Shown here: positions 2,451 to 64,000 of the stretch, one piece after another
Layout: each line of letters begins with the position of its first letter
How positions within the stretch are numbered: the stretch's first letter is position 1
Source of the DNA: Eledone cirrhosa
Lineage: Eukaryota
Assembly: GCA_964016885.1 (NCBI GenBank)
Contig: OZ024748.1
Location: forward strand, 51,274,001 to 51,338,000
Direction: 5' to 3'
Length of the DNA: 64,000 nucleotides
Notes under the pieces: generated by a model
The model's input: the letters and a program-made list of their open reading frames with translations, nothing else
Databases searched by the model: none
Told to the model about the DNA's origin: nothing
Made by a program: the position numbers and the translations under genes

Positions 2451-3039
2451 GTGTGTATGTGGCAAGTCGTGTCATTTCACGCCAACGGAACATATTTCCG
2501 ATGTTATCAGGAAAACATAACAAGCCAAAGGCAAAACTAAAATTCAAATATCAATCATAAAATTAAATAAAATAAAAAGAAATAAAAAACATATTAAATT
2601 AAAAAAATAATAATAATAATAATTTTACAAAATAAAATTTTAAACATATTTTAAAGAGTACTTTCCTTCATTATTATTATTGTTATTATTATTATTGCTA
2701 CTACTACTACTACTACTTATTTCAACCACTAATTTCATTTGTATGTTTTATTAATAGTTTCGTATGTTTACAGTATGTTTTCCTGTATATTTTGTTGTTT
2801 TGTGAAATAGTTTTTCTATTTTTATTATTAATTATATTATTTTACCATTTATAGAATTTTTTGGTAATTATTTTGAATTTCTTTTTCAGCTTCAAAAATG
2901 TTTCTTTTTAAAATTTAAACAAATACTTTTAAAATTTTTGTATGTTGTTATTTGAGATTTTATAAAGATTAGTTTGGTAAAATCTGTCTTGGGGTTTAAT
3001 TAGAATATATCCTTATCTTCATCGCAACATACATGCATG

Positions 3040-3166
3040 AACATGTGTGTGTGTGTATGAATGAGTGTGTGTGTGTATGAGTGATTGTGTGTGTATAAGT
3101 GAGTGTGTGTCTGTGCATGCATGTGTGTATGTATGTGTATGACTAAGTGTGTGTATGAGTGAGTGA

Positions 3167-3197
<31 letters not shown>

Positions 3198-3561
3198 TCC
3201 TGTGTCACTGTGTGTCTGTGTCTGTGCATGATTGTGTGTATGTATGTGTATGAGTGAGTGTGTGTGCGTGTGTATGAGTAAGTGTGTGTGTGTGTATGAG
3301 TGAGTGTGTATGTGTGAGTGTGTGTGTATGAGTGAGTGTGTGTGTGTCTTGTGTTGCTGTGAGTTTGTGTCTGTGTGTCTGAATGCATATATGTATATTT
3401 GTGTGTGTGTGTGTATTGTGTCTGTGTCTGAATGTATGTGCATATGTTTATATCTGTGTCTGAGTGTGTGTGCTTGCTTTTGTGTATGTGTGCATTTGTG
3501 TGTGTGTGTATCCATATGCATATGTGTTTATCTGTGTGTGCGTGTGCGTGTGCGTGTGCGT

Positions 3562-3596
<35 letters not shown>

Positions 3597-3635
3597 CGTG
3601 TGCGTGTGCGTGTGTGTGTGTGTGCACATGCATGC
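3040..3635. repeat. (TG)n-rich microsatellite
   Basis: Visible TG/TGCG repeats. Confidence 0.9.
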
Positions 3636-3707
3636 GTGATATCTTAATGAGTGTCTCACTTATCATTAACCAATCAATCAATTGTTTATTTATCAACTGT
3701 TATAGCC

Positions 3708-4350
3708 ACTGCCATGACCACCATTACCACCATCATCACTACCACTACCACCACCACCATGACCACCACTACCACTACCACCACCACCATCACCACCACT
3801 ACCACTAGCACCATCACCACCACCACCACCATCATCACCACCACTACCACCACCATCACCACCACTACCACTACCACCATCACCACCACCACTACCACTA
3901 GCACCATCACCACCACCACCATCTTCACCACCACTACCACCACCACTACCACCATCACCACCACCACCACCGTCACTACCACTAGCACCATCACCACCAC
4001 CACTACCACCATCACCACCACCACCACCACTGCCACTGCCACCAACACCACCGCCACTACCATATCCACCACTAGTATTACCACCACCAATGGTGGTGGT
4101 GCTTATAGTGGTGGTGGTGGTGTTGGTGGTGATGTTGCTTATAGTGGTGGTGGTGGTGTTGGTGGTGATGTTGCTTATGGTGGTGGTGGTGGTAATGTTG
4201 TTTATATTAGTGTTGGTGTTGTTGGTAGAGGTATTGGCAGCAGTGGTGGTGGTGGCAGTGGTGGTGGTGGCAGTGGTGGTGGTGGCAGTGGCAGTGGTGG
4301 CAGTGGTGGTGGCAGTGGCAGTGGTGGCAGTGGTGGTGGTGGTGGCAGTG
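3708..4350. repeat. (ACC)n switching to (GGT)n trinucleotide tract
   Basis: ACC repeats to ~4089, then GGT repeats from ~4091. Confidence 0.9.
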
Positions 4351-4419
4351 TTGCTATTGACATGTTTGCTGGTGATTTTAAATTATTATTTTTGTTGCTA
4401 ATTTTATGAAAATTATTTA

Positions 4420-4487
4420 TATATGTGTGTATGTGTGTATGTGTGTATGTATGTATGTATGTATGTATGTGTGTGTGTGTGTATGTA

Positions 4488-4520
<33 letters not shown>

Positions 4521-4910
4521 GTATGTGTGTATGTGTGTATGTATGTGTGTGTGTATGTATGTGTGTGTGTATGTGTGTATGTGTGTATGTGTGTATGTAT
4601 GTATGTATGTGTGTATGTATGTATCAGTGTATGTATGTATGTATGTATGTATGTATGTATGTGTGTATGTATGTATGTATGAGTATGTATGTATGTGTAT
4701 ATATGTATGTATGTGTGTATGTGTGTATGTGTGTGTGTATGTATGTATGTATGTGTGTATGTGTGTATGTGTGTGTGTGTATGTATGTGTGTATGTATGT
4801 GTGTATGTATGTATGTGTGTATGTGTGTATGTATGTATGTATGTGTGTGTGTGTTTGTATGTGTGTATGTATGTATGTGTGTATGCATGTGTGTATGTGT
4901 GTGTGTGTGT
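4420..4910. repeat. (TG)n/(TATG)n microsatellite
   Basis: Visible repeats. Confidence 0.9.
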
Positions 4911-6059
4911 TGAGAGTGGAATGTTAGGTTGGCAATGTTTGTATTTACCGTGATTTTCTTTTAATCAGTGTTCCTTTGCTTCATTGTGTCTACTTTTGTT
5001 GTTGCTTTTTTTTCTTTCTTGCATTGTATTTTTATTTAATATATTTGTTTGTTATTTCATTTTATTGTTGTCATCAATATAGAAATTGTGGCACAATGGA
5101 GGCACTGAGAAATACTGTAAAGCACTGCAACTACATGACTTACAATATATATATATATATAATCCTACCCAGGGCCAGACTTTCACGTGCTGACACCATA
5201 AACTATATGAAATTTGAGGCCCTTCTCGAGAAATATATAATTATTATTCTTTATATTAATTTTGATGATATATAACAAATAATATATAAAATAAGGAAAA
5301 TGCGAAGTTCAATGTCGATGTTAAAGAGTCCTATATTAACAAAGCTGTGATACATATTCCAATGGTGATTGTGGCTATATGATTGTTCAATTAAGTAACC
5401 AGTCACGTGATCTCATCAGACATCATAATTATGTAATAGGGTTATATTTCTGAGGCAATCAACTATCAAGACAAGGGAATGTTTCTATAGCTGATGTCTG
5501 CTCCCTTGACATTGGCTATAAAAGCATTTTCCTTATTCTACATATACTTCATCACTGACTGACAAATCAAATTTGGAAGAAAAACCTGATGTTGAGTGCT
5601 TCAATTGAATTGCATCACTATTTCCTGATGGTGCAATGCAAATGTTACCCCATTTAGTCTGCATACTTGCAGTATATATATATATATATATAATGTTTGA
5701 TGATTTAGTGTTAAAGAATAAAAACAAATAAAATAAAAAATATATTTTAAAAATGCATCCCCTGAGGGTGTGAAGCACCGAGCTATAACTTATAGGTAAG
5801 TCCATCACTGATCTGTATTTTTAATGAGTTGAAAGACAATTCCCATCACTATTTTCAAAGTTTCTGAGACTGATAAGTTGAAGGAGGAAAGGAACCCTCA
5901 AACCAGAAACTTGGTTTGAATGCTTGAAACAGAGTGGTTTCAGTTCAAGGCATTAAAGGGCCAAGTGTTGATGTTAAACCAGACAACAGATTAAGTCTAA
6001 TGGTTCAAATAGACCACGGTGAGACTGAACTCAAGACACAAGGAGCTACATCAAATACA

Positions 6060-19605: not shown

Positions 19606-19638
<33 letters not shown>

Positions 19639-19649
19639 TGTATATATAT

Positions 19650-19745
19650 ACAAGTTTATCCCGGGTTCAATACAAAGCAGAGTATACATATTTAATATAG
19701 AAAAAGCTTCTACAGGACTAGAACTGTTTCATTCATCATCAAATA
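19650..19745 (-). mobile_element. Penelope-like pLTR fragment with 3' half of hammerhead (family of 49580-49765)
   Basis: Minus strand reads tgaaacagttctagtcctgtagaagc, as in the 49705-49751 hammerhead. Confidence 0.6.
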
Positions 19746-19819
19746 TTCGTGACCCCAACGGCTTAACTAGATCCGAACTCTTGAGTAATGGTGTAACTAG
19801 TTTTTACTGCCTCCATTCT

Positions 19820-19853
<34 letters not shown>

Positions 19854-19877
19854 CACATATATATATATATATATATC

Positions 19878-21706
19878 GGGTTTGTGTCAGGTAAAAGTAC
19901 CACAGACGCTCTTTTCATTGTACAACAACTACAAGAGATGTACCTAGCTAAAAGTAAACCCTTATACTTAGCTTTTGTTGACTTGGAGAAAGCCTTTGAC
20001 AGAGTACCCTGCTCCATTATCTGGGGGGCGCTTAGAAAACTAGGGGTTGATGAATGGCTTGTGAGAGCTATACAAGCCATGTATAAAGAAACAGTCAGCA
20101 AGGTTAGAATTAACAACGAATATAGTGAAGAGTTTAGCGTAAAAGTTGGTGTTCATCAGGCCCTGTTCTTAGCCCCCTACTTTTTATTATTGCCCTTCAG
20201 GCTATAACAGAGGAGTTCAAGACTGGCTGCCCATGGGAACTCCTATATGCAGATGATCTAACGCTCATAGCTGAATCAATGGCTGAACTAGAGAAGAAAT
20301 TCCAAACATGGAAGCATGGCTTAGAATCAAAAGGCCTTAAAGTTAACTTGTCTAAGACTAAAGTTCTAGTTTGTAGGAAGGAAAATAGGGCACCGGTCCC
20401 ATCTGGGAAATGGCCATGCTCAGTGTGTAGGAAAGGAGTAGGCAGAAACTCCATTTTATGTCCCAAATGCAAAGTATGGTTGCATAAAAGATGTAGTGGG
20501 ATCACAGGTAAGCTAACTAAGAATATAGATTTTATATGTGGCCGGTGCTCTGGTGCAATAAGTAGCAGCAAGTACCCACAGAATACTAGCACATTCCATT
20601 GCACAGATGGTACTATAGAAATAGTGGACACCTTCCGTTCCCTGGGTGACAAAATCAGCAGTGGGGGAGGGTTCTCTGAAAGTACAGTAGCTAGAGTCAG
20701 AACGGGATGGAAAAAGTTCAGAGAGCTTATACCACTATTGGCCGCTAAAGGGTTATCTCTAAAAATGAAAGGCAGGCTGTATGATGCCTGCATACGAACA
20801 GCAATGTTACATGGCAGTGAGACCTGGGCATTGTGTGCAGAGGATATATGCAGACTGGAGAGAAACGAAGCTTGCATGCTCCGCTGGATGTGTAATAGTA
20901 ATATATGTGAACAGCAAAGCATAAACGAACTAAGGGAGAAATTAGGAATAAGAGGGATCAGATGTTGTTTACTCGAGAGAAGACTACGTTGGTATGGTCA
21001 CGTGATGCGCATGAAAGACGACAGCTGTATAAAAAAAGTGCAGGGCGATAAAAATAGACGGTAGCCACGGAGTAGGCAGACCCAGGAAAACCTGGGACGA
21101 CTTGATAAATTCCGACCTCACACACTTACACTTCTCCAAGACAATGTCACTGGACCGAGATCTTTGACGCTACACAGTCATACAGAAGACCCACCTTGCC
21201 TAAGTACAAAGTGAAACCCACAGTCAGTTGGCACCTCTAACAAAATACCCCCCCCCCCTTCCAATACCCCCCCCCCCCCCCTGCTCCCCCCCCTTAAATG
21301 TGAAGTCATGTTGGTGTCACAACATCCAGTCCGAAACAAATGAGGTCATGTAGGTGTCACGACAAAAAAAAAAAGACACAATCCACGCTGTAATGTGGCC
21401 GTGTAGGTAACACGGTAAAAACCTCCCAGTCCACACTGTAAACGTGGTTGGTGTTAGGAAGGGCATTCAGCCGTAGAAAACCCGCCAGACAGTCCACGCT
21501 GTAATGTGGCCGTGTAGGCAACACGGTAAAAACCTCCCAGTCCACACTGTAAACGTGGTTGGTGTTAGGAAGGGCATTCAGCCGTAGAAAACCTGCCAGA
21601 CAGTCCTATACGAGCAGGACAACAAATCTTGCCTCAAGTGGGAAACCTCCCGTCCAAACCCATGCAAGCGTGGAAGATGGACGTTAAACGATGATGATGA
21701 TGATGA
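19878..21706 (+). mobile_element. RTE-clade LINE, 5'-truncated, frameshifted ORF2 plus 3' UTR and (GAT)n tail
   Basis: RT motifs STTDALF, FVDLEKAFDRVP, VGVHQ, LLYADDL; C4HC3 PHD finger; RRLRWYGHVMR; ~114-bp duplication in the 3' UTR; ends ggacgttaaacgatgatgatg. Confidence 0.95.
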
Positions 21707-23410: not shown

Positions 23411-23957
23411 TATACATATATCAATATACATATTATCATCATCATCAATATCATCGTTCAACGTCCATCTTCCACGCTAGCATGGTTTAGACGATTATGT
23501 TCCATTAGATGCGGAGAATGGTCGGGAGACTGTGTACATGAAAAAAAATTGATTTTTCTGCCTTACAAAGGGGAACCTGTCTCTATAATTGGGAAACTGC
23601 AGCCCCTGTCACTATTAGATATTGAAAGTCAAAAATGAGAGACATCAAAATACACTAGGGTTCTTTGGCCTGTGTAGATACTGACTAAGATGAACAATAT
23701 ATATATTGGGGTGGGTTCCCAATGGGTATTGGGAAGTGACCACAGTTAAAGAAGGTAGTTAATGATTTTGTAGATTATAAGAAGCAGGAGTAGACTTGTT
23801 TCATTCATTGGAAATCATTATGATTTCATATGAATGAAACAGATTTAATTCGGTGGAAGTCATTTTCCTATAAAATAAATAAATAAATATATATATATGT
23901 ATACATATATATATACATATATATATATATACACATATATATATATATGTATATATA

Positions 23958-31285: not shown

Positions 31286-32302
31286 TGTGTGAGTCTTTGA
31301 TTGTTATGTTAGTGACTGTGTATTTTCCAATCAGCTACCTAGCTTTTTTTATTATTTTATTTTTAGTATGATCTAGGATGCTTTTATGCTTAGCAACAGC
31401 ACTTCTCTGATATATGTGAATAACAGGGTCCAAACTATGAGGAAGATGGAACAAACATGATCTCCATCTAACTCACTTATCTCATTGAAATGAACGAACA
31501 AGTTGGCCACTTGTTTGTCATTTGACTTTCTAGAAATAACTGTCAAATCTCTCTTGAATCAAACTGTAACCTCTATAATAAATACTGAAGAGACATTTGA
31601 TAATGTAGTCATACATGCTTTTAACATGACAGGAAAGCCATATCTGCTTGATCATTGCTTACCTGAAGCTAATCACCAGCAACAACATCAATAGGTTTTA
31701 CTGTAGCAATAATTCTTTCACTTACTACATGCCACAACAAATATACAGTACAGAAATTTAATTTCTTCGTCTTCTTTATCTGGCGATTTGTCCTGGGAAG
31801 CATGGAATGGACACAAAGATAGTATATTCCAAGACCCTAAAGAGGGTTCAGCAAGGAAATAAACTACAACCATTCTAACCTGGAAGATCACAACCCATTC
31901 AGGTAAGGAGCAGTAACCAGTGGAGAAGGCCAGGTACTACAGGAAATAATTTAATAATTCTGAAAAAAAATTTTAGAGTATCCAATCTATTCCTGTAATT
32001 CACAGAGTTACTTACAAGACTATCAATTATTCCAGGAATAACTTTCTAGTCTAATATTTCTGTTTTCCTTTTCTAAAGACAGTAGAATATGATTTGAGTC
32101 ATATGACGTTTAATTTTAGCAAGAAGGGCAACCTGGAAGCTCACATTTGATAATATAGTCCGAAATACACTATATTTGGCAAAGAGATAGAAATGGTTTT
32201 AGAGAGAATTCGTTTGATTAGATGTATGCTCCAGGATTAGAATTATTTCATTTGCATGAAATCTTATGAATGAAACAGTTCTAGTCCCGTAGAAATATTC
32301 CT

Positions 32303-39707: not shown

Positions 39708-39872
39708 AAGGAATACATAGTTTAGAAGATAAAGTCCTTTATTGATAAGACTGTGATACATATTTCGATGATGACATTGGCTACACGATTTGGCGTGGCC
39801 AGTGTCATCATTGAAATATGTATCACAGTCTTATCAATAAAATACTTTATCACCTAAACTTTGTATTTCCTT
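39708..39872. repeat. ~77-bp-arm imperfect palindrome
   Basis: aaggaatacatagtttag...gacattggctac / gtggccagtgtc...ctaaactttgtatttcctt; single-arm homolog at ~5292-5380. Confidence 0.85.
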
Positions 39873-45393: not shown

Positions 45394-45395
45394 TA

Positions 45396-45433
45396 CGAGC
45401 TGAGGATCCACTAAGGTGAAACAATTGTTCTCG
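45396..45433 (+). ncRNA. Minimal type I hammerhead ribozyme motif, canonical core
   Basis: cgag CTGAGGA tcc actaa ggt GAAAC aatt GTT ctcg; lies at the start of a ~140-bp unique island in (TA)n. Confidence 0.75.
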
Positions 45434-45560
45434 GTATGGTGAACTAACTGTTGTGTAACCACTTCTACCAAACTCGTCCCATGGACTGAGTGCTCTACCA
45501 CTACGGATATTACCTTCCAGTGTTCTACCACTATATATATATAATTATAGTGGAATAATC

Positions 45561-48699: not shown

Positions 48700-49036
48700 A
48701 TCATCATCATCATCATTTTACGTCCACTTCTCCCTGCTTGCAAGGGTGGGATGGGAACTGATTCTGGCTTGATTTCTACAGCTGGATGCCCTTCCTAACA
48801 CCAACCTCATTTACAGTGAGTGCTGGGTGCTTTTTTGCCGTGGCACCTTCACAACCACTTTGCAGTTGAATGATAGGGACCCCAGTCCCTATCATCTCAT
48901 TCAACAGCTGAGTAAACTGGAGCAATGTGAAATAAAGTGTCTTGCTCAAGGAAACAACACATCACCCGGTCTGAGAATTGAACTCACAACCTTTCTATTG
49001 CAAGGCCAATGCTCTAACCACTAAGCCATGTGCATC
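48700..49036 (-). mobile_element. CORE-type tRNA SINE with RTE tail
   Basis: Reverse complement of 49822-50166. Confidence 0.9.
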
Positions 49037-49579
49037 CATATATGTGTGTGTATGTATGTGCATACATATATATGTATGTATGAACATATGTATATAGATA
49101 TGCATGAATGTATATAAATATGCATGAATGTATATAAATATGCATGTCAGTATATATGCATATATGTATGACTGCATGTATATAAATATATGTGTTTAAT
49201 GTAATAAAGATGATTTGTGTAAATGTTTGAGTGTGCTTACTTGTGTGTGTGTCTATATGTGCATGCTTGTGTATGAGAGAATGTGTGTATGTATGTGTGT
49301 GTGTGTAGGTGTGCTTCTGTGTGAATATGTTTGTAAATGTGACTGTCTTCATGTTTTTCAGTATGTAAGTGTGCTTACATATCTGTACTTAAAAAAATAG
49401 CTATGTTCATTGTGTCTGTGTGTTTGTGTCTATAATAATTTTGTTTGCATGTGTATAGGTATGTGCCTGCTTATAATTATGTAAGTATATGTGTTACTAT
49501 ATGTTTGTGTGTGTGTCTGTATAGATACATGACCATTTATATACATGCATGGATATATGTACATATATATATATATATG

Positions 49580-49765
49580 TTTATCCTGGGTTCAATCGGG
49601 GGTAACCACATAAGTAAGGTACTCAATACATAGAGTATAAATATTTTACATAGAAATGGCTTCTACAGGACTAGAGCTGTTTCATTTGGGAGAAATCATC
49701 AGCACTTCCTGATGATTTCTCCCAAATGAAACAGTTCTAGACCTGTAGAAGCCAGTTCTATATTA
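49580..49765. mobile_element. Penelope-like pLTR fold-back (52-bp arms) in (TA)n
   Basis: Arms 49651-49702 / 49709-49760, loop cacttc; relatives at 19650-19745, 32229-32310, 58228-58305 plus 58567-58610. Confidence 0.75.
49705..49751 (+). ncRNA. Type I hammerhead ribozyme motif, canonical core
   Basis: cttc CTGATGA tttctcccaaat GAAAC ag ttctagac ct GTA gaag: stem I cttc/gaag, stem III acag/ctgt, GUA site, weak stem II. Confidence 0.75.
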
Positions 49766-49774
49766 TATATATAC

Positions 49775-49817
<43 letters not shown>

Positions 49818-49821
49818 TATA

Positions 49822-50166
49822 TGGAGGCACATGGCTTAGTGGTTAGAGCATTAGTCTTGCAGTCGAAAGGTTGTGAGTTCAATTCTCAGACCGGGTGATG
49901 TGTTGTTTCCTTGAGCAAGACACTTTATTTCACATTGCTCCAGTTTACTCAGCGGGAGAAATGAGATGATAGGGACTGGGGTCCCTATCATTCCACTGCA
50001 AAGTGGTCATGGAGGTGCCACGGAAAAAAAGCACCCAGCACTCACTGTAAATGAGGTTGGTGTTAGGAAGGGCATCCAGCTGTAGAGATCAAGCCAGAAT
50101 CAATTCCCATCACGCCCTTGTAAGCAGGGAGAAGCAGACGTAAAATGATGATGATGATGATGATGA
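49822..50166 (+). mobile_element. CORE-type tRNA SINE with RTE tail, full length
   Basis: ggaggcacatggcttagtgg (A box), gagttcaattc (B box), ccttgagcaagacacttt (CORE-like), RTE tail, (GAT)n. Confidence 0.9.
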
Positions 50167-52133: not shown

Positions 52134-52327
52134 TAGGAAAAAGTATAACCCCGACGGCAGAGCTCAAGCCATTTCAACGGCTATTTCTGGTCCAGAAATA
52201 GCCGTCAAAATGGCTTGATCTCTGCGTCAGGGTCATACTTTTTACTATTACCCACTCTACTACCCTAAGTATTGAGTTCTCTAGTGCGTTATGGTCCATC
52301 TGGTTCCTTACCACAACCTCTTCGTTA
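52134..52327. mobile_element. Penelope-like pLTR fold-back (~57-bp arms) with hammerhead 3' half
   Basis: Arms 52134-52190 / 52192-52247; minus strand GAAA tggc ttgagctct gccg TC ggggtt. Confidence 0.6.
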
Positions 52328-52354
52328 TATATATATACATACAGATATATAGAT

Positions 52355-53417
52355 ATAAACTGCCCCAAATGCAAACAATGGGTACACAAGAGATGTAGCG
52401 GGATCTCAGGAAGCTTAATTAAGAATGTAGGATTCACATGCAGCAGCTGTGCTGAAACAGCAAGCAAACAGTCACAGGAAACAAGTACCACCAATCTCTG
52501 GGAGGGCCCTGTAGAAACAGTAGACAGCTTCTGCTACCTAGGTGACCGAATTAGCAACGGAGGTGGGTGCTCAGAAAGTACAATAACTAGGGTAAGAACG
52601 GGATGGAAGAAGTTTAGGGAACTACTACCACTGCTAGCTGCAAAAGGCTTCTCCCTCAGAATGAAAGGCAGACTGTATGATGCGTGTATCCGAACAGCGA
52701 TGTTGCATGGTAGTGAGACCTGGGCGCTGAAGGTGGAAGACTTACGTAGATTAGAGAGAAACGAAGCCTGCATGCTCCGATGGATGTGTAACAGTAATAT
52801 ACGTGAACGACAAAGCATAAAGGAATTGAGAGAGAGACTGAGCATAAGAGGAATCAAATGCTGCGTGCAGGAGAGGCGGTTACGCTGGTATGGACATGTG
52901 ATGCGTATGAAGGATGACAGCTGCATAAAAAGGTGCAGAGCACTAGAAGTTGATGGAAACCGCGGAGTGGGGAGACCCAAGATGACTTGGGATGAGGTGT
53001 TAAAAGCCGACCTTACCCAACTACACCTCTCAAAGTCAATGACACACGACCGTGACTTCTGGCGTCACGCAGTAATACAGGGTACCCGACCTCCCATGGG
53101 TACATGCTGAAGCATATAAACAATATGCCCCCCCCCCCCCCCACCGCAAGGTGGTCGTGGAGGTGCCACGGCAAAAAAGCACCCAGCCCACACTGTAAAG
53201 TGGACGTGTAGGCGCCACGAAAAAGCACCCAGCACTCACTGTAAATGAGGTTGGTGTTAGGAAGGGCATCCAGCTGTAGAAATCAAGCCAAAATCAGTTC
53301 CTGTATGAGCAAGGCATGGTCAGCCGACCAGACACTGCCCACAACAGGACAACCCGTCTAACCCATGCTAGCGTGGAAGAACGGACGTAAAACGGTGATG
53401 ATGATGATGATGATGAT
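52355..53417 (+). mobile_element. RTE-clade LINE, young 5'-truncated copy
   Basis: Stop-free frame 52355-53110 (CPKCKQWVHKRC...VDSFCYLGD...RRLRWYGHVMR...GRPKMTW), 3' UTR, (GAT)n tail. Confidence 0.95.
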
Positions 53418-57950: not shown

Positions 57951-58307
57951 TAGTGTATATACTTACTCACACATACATAACATAAGTAAAATAAGAGGCT
58001 CGATCATGAGCTTGGCAATTTCGGCTGGTTTCTTCTAACCACATATATCATCATCATCATCAATTAACGTCCATCTTCCACACTAGCAAGGGTTAGACGG
58101 GTCCCATTTAGAGGCAATTTGGGTTGGGTGACTGCGTCTTGCTAATATAGGAATATTTCTGGGCGGTTTTCTATGGCTGGATGCCATTCCTAACACCAAA
58201 TATATATATATATACATATATATATGTGAGTCCAGGGTTCAATCGGGTGTAAGGTGCTCAATACATTATTAGAGTGTAAACAACAAGGAAATCATCACGA
58301 AATCATC

Positions 58308-58569
58308 GGGTGATGTGTTGTTTCCTTGAGCAAGACACTTTATTTCACATTGCTCCTGTTTACTCAGCTGTAGAAATGAGATGATAGGGACTGGGGTCCC
58401 TATCATTCCACTGCAAAGTGGTCGTGGAGGCGCCACAGAAAAAAAGAACCCAGCACTCACTGTAAATGAGGTTGGTGTTAGGAAGGGCATCCAGCTGTAG
58501 AAGTCAAGCCAGAATCAGTTCCCATCCCACCCTTGCAAGCAGGGAAAAGCAGACATAAAAATGATGATG
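58308..58569 (+). mobile_element. CORE-type SINE with RTE tail, 5'-truncated, nested in a pLTR fold-back
   Basis: Flanks 58228-58305 and 58567-58610 match the two arms of 49580-49765. Confidence 0.85.
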
Positions 58570-58654
58570 AAACAGTTCTAATCATGTAGAAGCCATTTCT
58601 ATATTAAATTTCTGATATATATATATATATATTTACATACACATATATATATAT

Positions 58655-63789: not shown

Positions 63790-64000
63790 TTATCAGTATA
63801 TTCCATCTTTCAACTCTGCCCAACTGACACCTCTTGAATCCATTCACATAGGATCAGGATCTATCTAGAGTCTTCCATTTGATATGGAAATTCATGTGAC
63901 TGTCATTAAGGGTCCAGATCATGTCGATTGTAAGTATGTGCTTGATCATATTTCTGGATATTTGATGGTTTATTGTGGCATAGGAAGCAATTTTTAAATT
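63790..64000 (-). pseudogene. Degenerate Penelope-like GIY-YIG endonuclease fragment
   Basis: Manual translation across a frameshift: FKNCFLCHNKPSNIQKYDQ / IWTLNDSHMNFHIKWKTLDRS*SYVNGFKRCQLGRVERWNIL, resembling FK.R...H......KY...IW.LK....F.I.W......Y......RC.LC..EK..I. Confidence 0.55.

Follow-up and report, generated by a model that had tools for sequence, protein, structure and literature searches.

A hairpin in a TA microsatellite of Eledone cirrhosa: putative head-to-head copies of a Hydra-type PLE 5' end that likely turn where the element's RNA begins

The window analyzed in this study is a stretch of 64,000 nucleotides of Eledone cirrhosa (GenBank assembly GCA_964016885.1, contig OZ024748.1, positions 51,274,001 to 51,338,000 of the forward strand). 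The feature under study is, judged by its sequence, an insertion of ~190 bp in (TA)n in which the 5' end of a Hydra-type Penelope-like retrotransposon (PLE) is present twice, head to head. Its parts are given below in window positions, together with family coordinates in which position 0 is C3 of the hammerhead; the boundaries of the tail are approximate, as the zone from +55 to +66 is TA-rich.

49559 to 49578, no strand: left flank, (TA)n target sequence
49579 to 49702, minus strand: long arm, PLE 5' sequence from 0 to about +128, tail included, without its own stem I 5' strand
49579 to 49641, minus strand: tail of ~65 nt, absent from the short arm and covering the interval from ~+60 to ~+128, the two end points of the family
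49703 to 49708, plus strand: loop CACTTC, the junction; the family form is GGCTTC, the stem I 5' strand, -6 to -1
49705 to 49765, plus strand: short arm, an inverted second copy from -4 to about +60, bearing the hammerhead
49705 to 49751, plus strand: type I hammerhead motif, with stem I (49705-49708/49748-49751), CUGAUGA (49709-49715) and a weak stem II (49717-49718/49725-49726)
3' part of the same motif, plus strand: GAAA (49728-49731) and stem III (49731-49734/49743-49746)
49760 to 49822, no strand: right flank, (TA)n target sequence

The long arm matched the ORF-linked copy L191 at 118 of 128 positions (92%) and a further copy, L143, at 114 of 124, while the short arm matched L191 at 62 of 69. 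A target-site duplication could not be made out within the (TA)n of the right flank. Non-LTR retrozymes are defined as head-to-tail tandem units that each carry a hammerhead (10.64898/2026.07.22.740005), and the feature is instead a solo head-to-head insertion. Here and below, statements credited to publications refer to the accessible parts of those sources.

The initial annotation had described a canonical, intact hammerhead locked inside its own antisense hairpin. The two 52-nt arms that it named (49651-49702 and 49709-49760) are indeed mutual reverse complements with three non-Watson-Crick positions (A.G at 49656/49755, A.A at 49670/49741 and G.U at 49676/49735), and the loop between them is CACTTC, at 49703-49708. 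The hairpin folded at -85.3 kcal/mol, with a z of -17, and none of 200 shuffles was equally good. The fold-back thus has the extent first given to it and more, as its antisense arm continues to 49579.

The core of the hammerhead is present, with CUGAUGA (49709-49715), GAAA (49728-49731), a 4-bp stem III and GUA (49745-49747), that is, the conserved CUGANGA, GAAA and UH with A15.1-U16.1 of the type I hammerheads. The loop of stem III contains a palindrome and the cut is predicted after A49747. The words canonical and intact do not apply: stem I has 4 bp in the window copy compared to 6 in unrearranged family copies, stem II is weakened, and no hammerhead model of Rfam matched. The canonical type I form has a G10.1-C11.1 pair and a 4-bp stem II, whereas U.U occupies 10.1-11.1 throughout the family (in all aligned rows), and the window copy has additionally lost a C-G pair of stem II. 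Compared to the family, two stem I pairs and one stem II pair are broken. The hammerhead fold of the window arm alone scored +0.7 kcal/mol versus -4.8 to -7.3 in six family copies, these being nearest-neighbour energies for relative use only. A search of the whole window with Rfam at the gathering score gave no hits; at E<=10 there were 40 matches, none of them a hammerhead, and these were rejected because they involved only miRNA models of a generic hairpin kind, with scores well under threshold. Covariation in 12 rows from three subfamilies was limited to stem I, where two of the six pairs had two-sided changes, with none in stems II and III. The window copy of the hammerhead is decayed.

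Additional repeats were observed in the window. A second, unrelated hammerhead-bearing stub lies in (TA)n at 45395-45532; its stem III is short and palindromic, it lacks a fold-back, and its family was also found beside L010 and L039. At 39712-39867 there is an imperfect hairpin of ~70 bp with a one-sided extension, likely a PLE fold-back that is older and belongs to another family. The pLTR of the element under study has four further decayed relatives, at 19617-19736, 23785-23877, 32256-32294 and 58200-58609, the last one split by a SINE-like insertion. Inverted copies of a common SINE-like repeat (48700-49096 and 49764-50161, 89-94% complementary) enclose the element, so that another duplex, larger than the hairpin, could form in read-through RNA. 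LINE RT fragments with a PHD-like finger are present at 19797-21061 and 52202-53107. Elsewhere in the genome, hairpins of other families with GAAAC-palindrome motifs were seen in the upstream flank of L020 and the downstream flank of L003, and fold-backs seem to be general among the TA-targeting elements of this genome.

The fold-back is by no means restricted to this locus, as 262 loci have exact 15-nt arms around a loop of 4-8 nt. When the sequence from 49578 to 49765 was compared with the 3.0-Gb genome, all 40 scored places (the best 40 of 5,924 candidates, the window copy among them) matched at 89-100%, and nearly all of these matches were flanked by (TA)n. A 25-mer of the tail had 13,261 exact hits genome-wide and a subfamily-specific 34-mer had 901, with none for the reversed controls of either. 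An assembly artefact as the source of the hairpin was rejected, as the arms differ from one another and thousands of copies have the same plan. DNA contigs from three runs of one sample contained the family at very high depth with varied joints, and none of them spans the locus.

A total of 146 loci were classified (the first-listed exact matches, all from contig C1), of which four were dropped as duplicates (L101, L102, L103 and L107), leaving 142. The sample was anchored on an exact tail motif and therefore misses copies lacking the tail, and the ends of local alignments are uncertain by 1-3 nt. Inverted (hairpin) copies made up 95 of the 142. Two 3' end points were found: short arms ended mostly between +50 and +67 (~+60), and long arms near ~+128.

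Copies selected only on the basis of the tail continue upstream into a pLTR with a TATA box, and two of them (L037 and L058) continue downstream into a reading frame. In L061 the hammerhead and tail are followed directly by a frame of 758 aa (P0001) with RT motifs and, at its C-terminus, GIY-YIG. L191, which belongs to the window's own subfamily, runs into the N-terminus of the same frame (75% over 175 aa) and is broken, and an intact full-length frame of that subfamily was not found. The element thereby has the makeup of an EN+ PLE: a single ORF with RT and GIY-YIG linked to a pLTR (in L061; in L191, the N-terminus only), a pLTR that is tandem or inverted, and a one-sided tail. Pfam placed GIY-YIG in P0001 at E=0.019, below the cut-off, with no hit to RVT_1, and a PDB search with P0001 returned nothing significant. 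Atlas neighbours of the protein, at 0.96-0.98, are annotated GIY-YIG/RVT_1/HTH_animal. P0001 also contains the motifs of the Hydra clade, namely DKT, the CxCX5C linker, CxxC and CxH around conserved E and N, and a C-terminal EN, with RWR at the place of the clade's RWK in P0001 and in L181-L190. Motif by motif, and by eye, it resembles the Hydra proteins of the PMC8557442 supplement. Insertion is into (TA)n, also a trait of the clade, in 125 of the 142 sampled copies, scored by the presence of a (TA)4 run no more than 60 nt past the tail anchor. By its motifs and ORF linkage, the element appears to belong to a new Hydra-type PLE family.

Many intact 758-aa frames at 99-100% identity occur genome-wide, and on this basis subfamily A looks recently or still active. 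Within the window, 63791-63919 was weakly similar in tblastn to the endonuclease part at the C-terminus of P0001 (35% over 43 aa, E=0.006). In L061 a TG/TA microsatellite of ~3 kb (2540-5700, minus-strand reading) separates the ORF from the next pLTR. Simple-repeat stretches also precede the pLTR in L035 and L181-L187, and these repeats appear to belong to the unit.

The positions at which the arms end gave an indication of how the hairpins form. Among 237 arm 5' ends, 80 fell at -7 to -3 (53 of them at -6/-5) and 10 at -30 to -8, a density of 16 per nt at -7 to -3 versus 0.43 at -30 to -8 and 1.36 at +4 to +53. The predicted cut site had no pile-up of ends in these 237 arms (1.5 per nt at +36 to +41 versus 1.36). 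Stem I, a 6-bp helix with two compensatory changes across three subfamilies, starts at position -6. The distance from TATA to C3 was 36 nt in 53 of 60 hits (overlapping loci included), which puts -6 at 30 nt. In the first 50 listed of the 262 loci, examined by eye, 19 had the loop type GGCTTC/GAAGCC and seven had a loop-less palindromic centre, which was GAAGCTTC in six of those seven and carried a substitution in the remaining one.

Further data came from the base that joins the element to its target. Genome-wide in subfamily B, to which this count is confined, 54 loci have a G between an AT run and the GGCTTC-core, four have the templated C there, and 16 have A or T (no added base). Subfamily B copies that extend further upstream mostly retain the templated C. 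The junctions of subfamily A, in the copies listed, are mixed, with G, C and several start points. An extra G is a cap signature of full-length L1 insertions (PMC11702581), and the non-templated G here likely records reverse transcription off capped RNA. The turning point of the hairpin, as read from DNA junctions, likely marks where the element's RNA begins, in which case GGCTTC (-6 to -1) would be the first bases of the transcript. The transcript start accounts for only part of the arm ends. This is because 105 of the 237 stop downstream of 0 and 22 run past -30.

The two arms of a hairpin differ in reach and share variants. Across the 95 hairpins, the short arm extended further upstream by at least 5 nt in 35 and the long arm in 19, with the two within 5 nt of each other in 41; in the window copy the short arm reaches further, by 4 nt. 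Variants common to both arms numbered 23 in subfamily A versus 5.8 when shuffled (25 of 29 hairpins usable) and 25 in subfamily B versus 6.2 (46 of 66 usable), and in each subfamily 0 of 2000 shuffles equalled the observed number. Changes private to one arm amounted to 170 in 2042 columns. As the arms share source variants, both came from one source or were homogenised, and the common variants could also stem from gene conversion between the arms.

We consider it probable that the feature arose by head-to-head insertion of the front end of the PLE into a TA microsatellite, with two cDNAs from a capped transcript or one source locus joined at its 5' end. The base that opens hammerhead stem I would be the first of the transcript, with promoter and cap deduced from the junctions. 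Priming would occur from both nicked target strands, at two internal sites of the RNA, for which the in vitro activity of PAc offers an analogue. Both cDNAs, which probably go back to a single capped transcript or a single source locus, would run to the RNA 5' end, and the two run-off products would be joined head to head, presumably by microhomology, during integration. Both junction types fit two identical cDNA ends annealing via terminal CC/GG or GC. Support for joined cDNAs comes from the fact that either arm can reach further and from the loop-less centres, which self-priming cannot make directly. The tail of ~65 nt, longer than the published 30-40 nt, counts against this explanation. Masking of the ribozyme in read-through RNA would be a side effect of the hairpin.

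A wider proposal, which in our judgment could fall either way, is that transcripts of Hydra-clade PLEs start exactly at stem I and that the ribozyme is a self-decapping switch able to free a capped leader of ~45 nt. Uncut, capped sense RNA would then be copied twice, from both nicked strands and two internal starts, and the cDNAs joined via their terminal bases.

The foremost alternative keeps the same element and start and has a single cDNA (or an antisense RNA) fold back at its 3' end and copy itself. Self-priming of this kind is favoured for the PLEs of rotifers in PMC3846280, which proposes an antisense template and leaves a sense template open. This mechanism would account for the variants common to both arms and for the 19 of 95 hairpins whose long arm is further upstream. 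It would also explain the modal junction (19 of the first 50 listed, by eye), in which the terminal CC can pair with GG at 0/-1. In the absence of later deletions, however, it cannot yield the 35 of 95 hairpins whose short arm has the extra upstream bases, the polarity of the window copy, nor the loop-less centres, and an antisense RNA template would not place a cap-like G at the sense 5' end. Self-priming thus fits part of the data only, and we regard it as unlikely for these hairpins as a whole.

It is a good deal less probable that the arms stop at stem I since a folded ribozyme or a splice junction blocks or redirects RT, rather than at the start of the RNA. The boundary does coincide with a helix end, an intron 3' end maps to the helix I 5' end in D. 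virilis (PMC4209133), and in subfamily A a T-rich tract and CAG are found just upstream of the boundary. In subfamily B, however, the bases before the boundary are not AG, and TA repeats adjoin the extra G directly, so that there is no room for an upstream exon. Moreover, a structural block would halt RT at the 3' side of the helix and not past it, and neither block nor splicing explains the G and the 30-nt TATA spacing. We would rank marginally lower the idea that the hairpin itself is mobile, a fold-back mini-element copied whole: the 40 scored copies (the best 40 of 5,924 candidates) do match the whole 188 nt at 89-100%, but junctions vary from copy to copy, and the exact loop CACTTC of the window was found at only two loci, the other of which (L028) is without the window's 3-nt deletion and its change at +15.

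The initial annotation had proposed that the fold-back sequesters the ribozyme in dsRNA and so silences itself to protect a host pre-mRNA. Sequestration is predicted, since the hairpin (-83.4 and -82.0 kcal/mol on the two strands) would outcompete the hammerhead fold, and whichever strand is transcribed, the antisense arm comes first. The protective role is unsupported, as hairpins are the commonest insertion product (95 of 142) and carry no signal of selection. That selection has kept the fold-back for silencing an active hammerhead in host pre-mRNA is the least credible of the explanations, and we give it very little credence. Apart from the predicted advantage of the hairpin on both strands, it could draw on subfamily A, the young one, in which 13 of 987 paired positions differ in hairpins compared to 12 of 579 in others (1.3% versus 2.1%; the numbers are small and the difference untested). 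In subfamily B, the window's own, the values are 78 of 1780 (4.4%) in hairpins versus 25 of 580 (4.3%) in non-hairpins, and the core is intact in 17 of 32 versus 6 of 9. The unpaired tail differs more in all classes of copies (2.4-9.3%), which may reflect mixing of subfamilies. The arms have diverged freely, unlocked copies with the stem I strand and the core start intact persist (54+16+4 AT-joined loci), and the ribozyme of the window is itself damaged. The hammerheads of metazoan PLEs are reported to be weak in monomeric form (PMC4209133) or to need the PLE protein (PMC11167929), and inverted ends are a published hallmark of PLEs (PMC8557442, PMC3846280). A scan of 141 of the 241 candidate frames of the window revealed no host exon, a result compatible with a large intron; only the LINE RT/PHD hits passed cut-offs, and a weak PAP2_C hit at 21360-21605 was rejected as a host exon, being a tandem repeat. 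The window locus is best seen as an ordinary by-product of a PLE.

Much of this architecture is known. Inverted pLTRs, tails, TA targeting and pLTR hammerheads have already been published (PMC8557442), and the EN+ PLE insertion unit (Craig et al. 2021, PMC8557442; Arkhipova et al. 2013, PMC3846280) likewise has head-to-head copies, a one-sided tail, a TATA-like box and hammerhead in the pLTR, and solo stubs. It differs in its tail of 30-40 nt, here ~65, and the accessible parts of these two papers mention neither turning points piled up at stem I nor an extra G, both of which were seen here. Members of the Hydra clade, including Hydra-1_Obim of Octopus bimaculoides, share the single short ORF with RT and then a C-terminal GIY-YIG, the DKT, CxCX5C linker, CxxC and CxH motifs, the (TA)n target and the hammerhead (PMC8557442). 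The present family differs from the clade in having RWR instead of RWK, a clear pLTR and, in L061, the ~3-kb microsatellite between ORF and pLTR. Hydra-1_Obim has another protein start and another listed hammerhead and is thus a separate family, and two DNA motifs of the window family were not found in the text of the PMC8557442 supplement, which is line-broken and partial.

The type I hammerheads of metazoan PLEs (Cervera and De la Pena 2014, PMC4209133) have the same topology, pLTR location and palindromic stem III loop, with many solo motifs and opposite-strand pairs. Those of the present family differ from them in a 6-bp stem I, a 4-bp stem III with an 8-nt loop, a short stem II, and U.U instead of the conserved G10.1-C11.1. 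In the Poseidon element PAc of Anolis (Frangieh et al. 2024, PMC11167929), each of the two strands is nicked and extended, the tail is set by a pair of internal RT start sites, and RNA that has not been cut serves as template; these features, along with the AT-rich target and a hammerhead near the 5' end, agree with what we propose. PAc belongs to another clade, its steps were shown in vitro whereas ours are read from junctions, and the accessible part of that paper does not treat inverted junctions. Twin priming of L1 (PMC11702581) is similar in its second cDNA from the reciprocal target end, its 5' extra G and its microhomology joins. There, however, the two cDNAs copy adjacent, non-overlapping stretches of RNA, whereas here both copy the same 5' stretch and yield a hairpin. 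A published reading of PLE hairpins in terms of a cap or start was not found in the literature covered, which lacks most subscription journals.

Overall, the locus combines a known architecture with a new family and a testable mechanistic clue as to how the element is copied. As a host-protective device the single locus does not matter. The origin of tandem and inverted ends in PLEs and the role of their hammerheads are stated open questions (PMC8557442, PMC3846280, PMC11167929), and the junction statistics of an abundant, partly young family provide sharp predictions: a start at -6, a capped sense template, and two cDNAs from one source. An apparently intact 758-aa protein is available for testing them. 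If the wider proposal is true, the question of sense versus antisense template for PLE palindromes would be settled, and the thousands of genomic hairpins would preserve a fossil map of where transcription of the element starts. Through this family, thousands of hairpins of ~50 bp have been spread across the genome, which, if transcribed, are potential substrates for RNA editing or small-RNA pathways.
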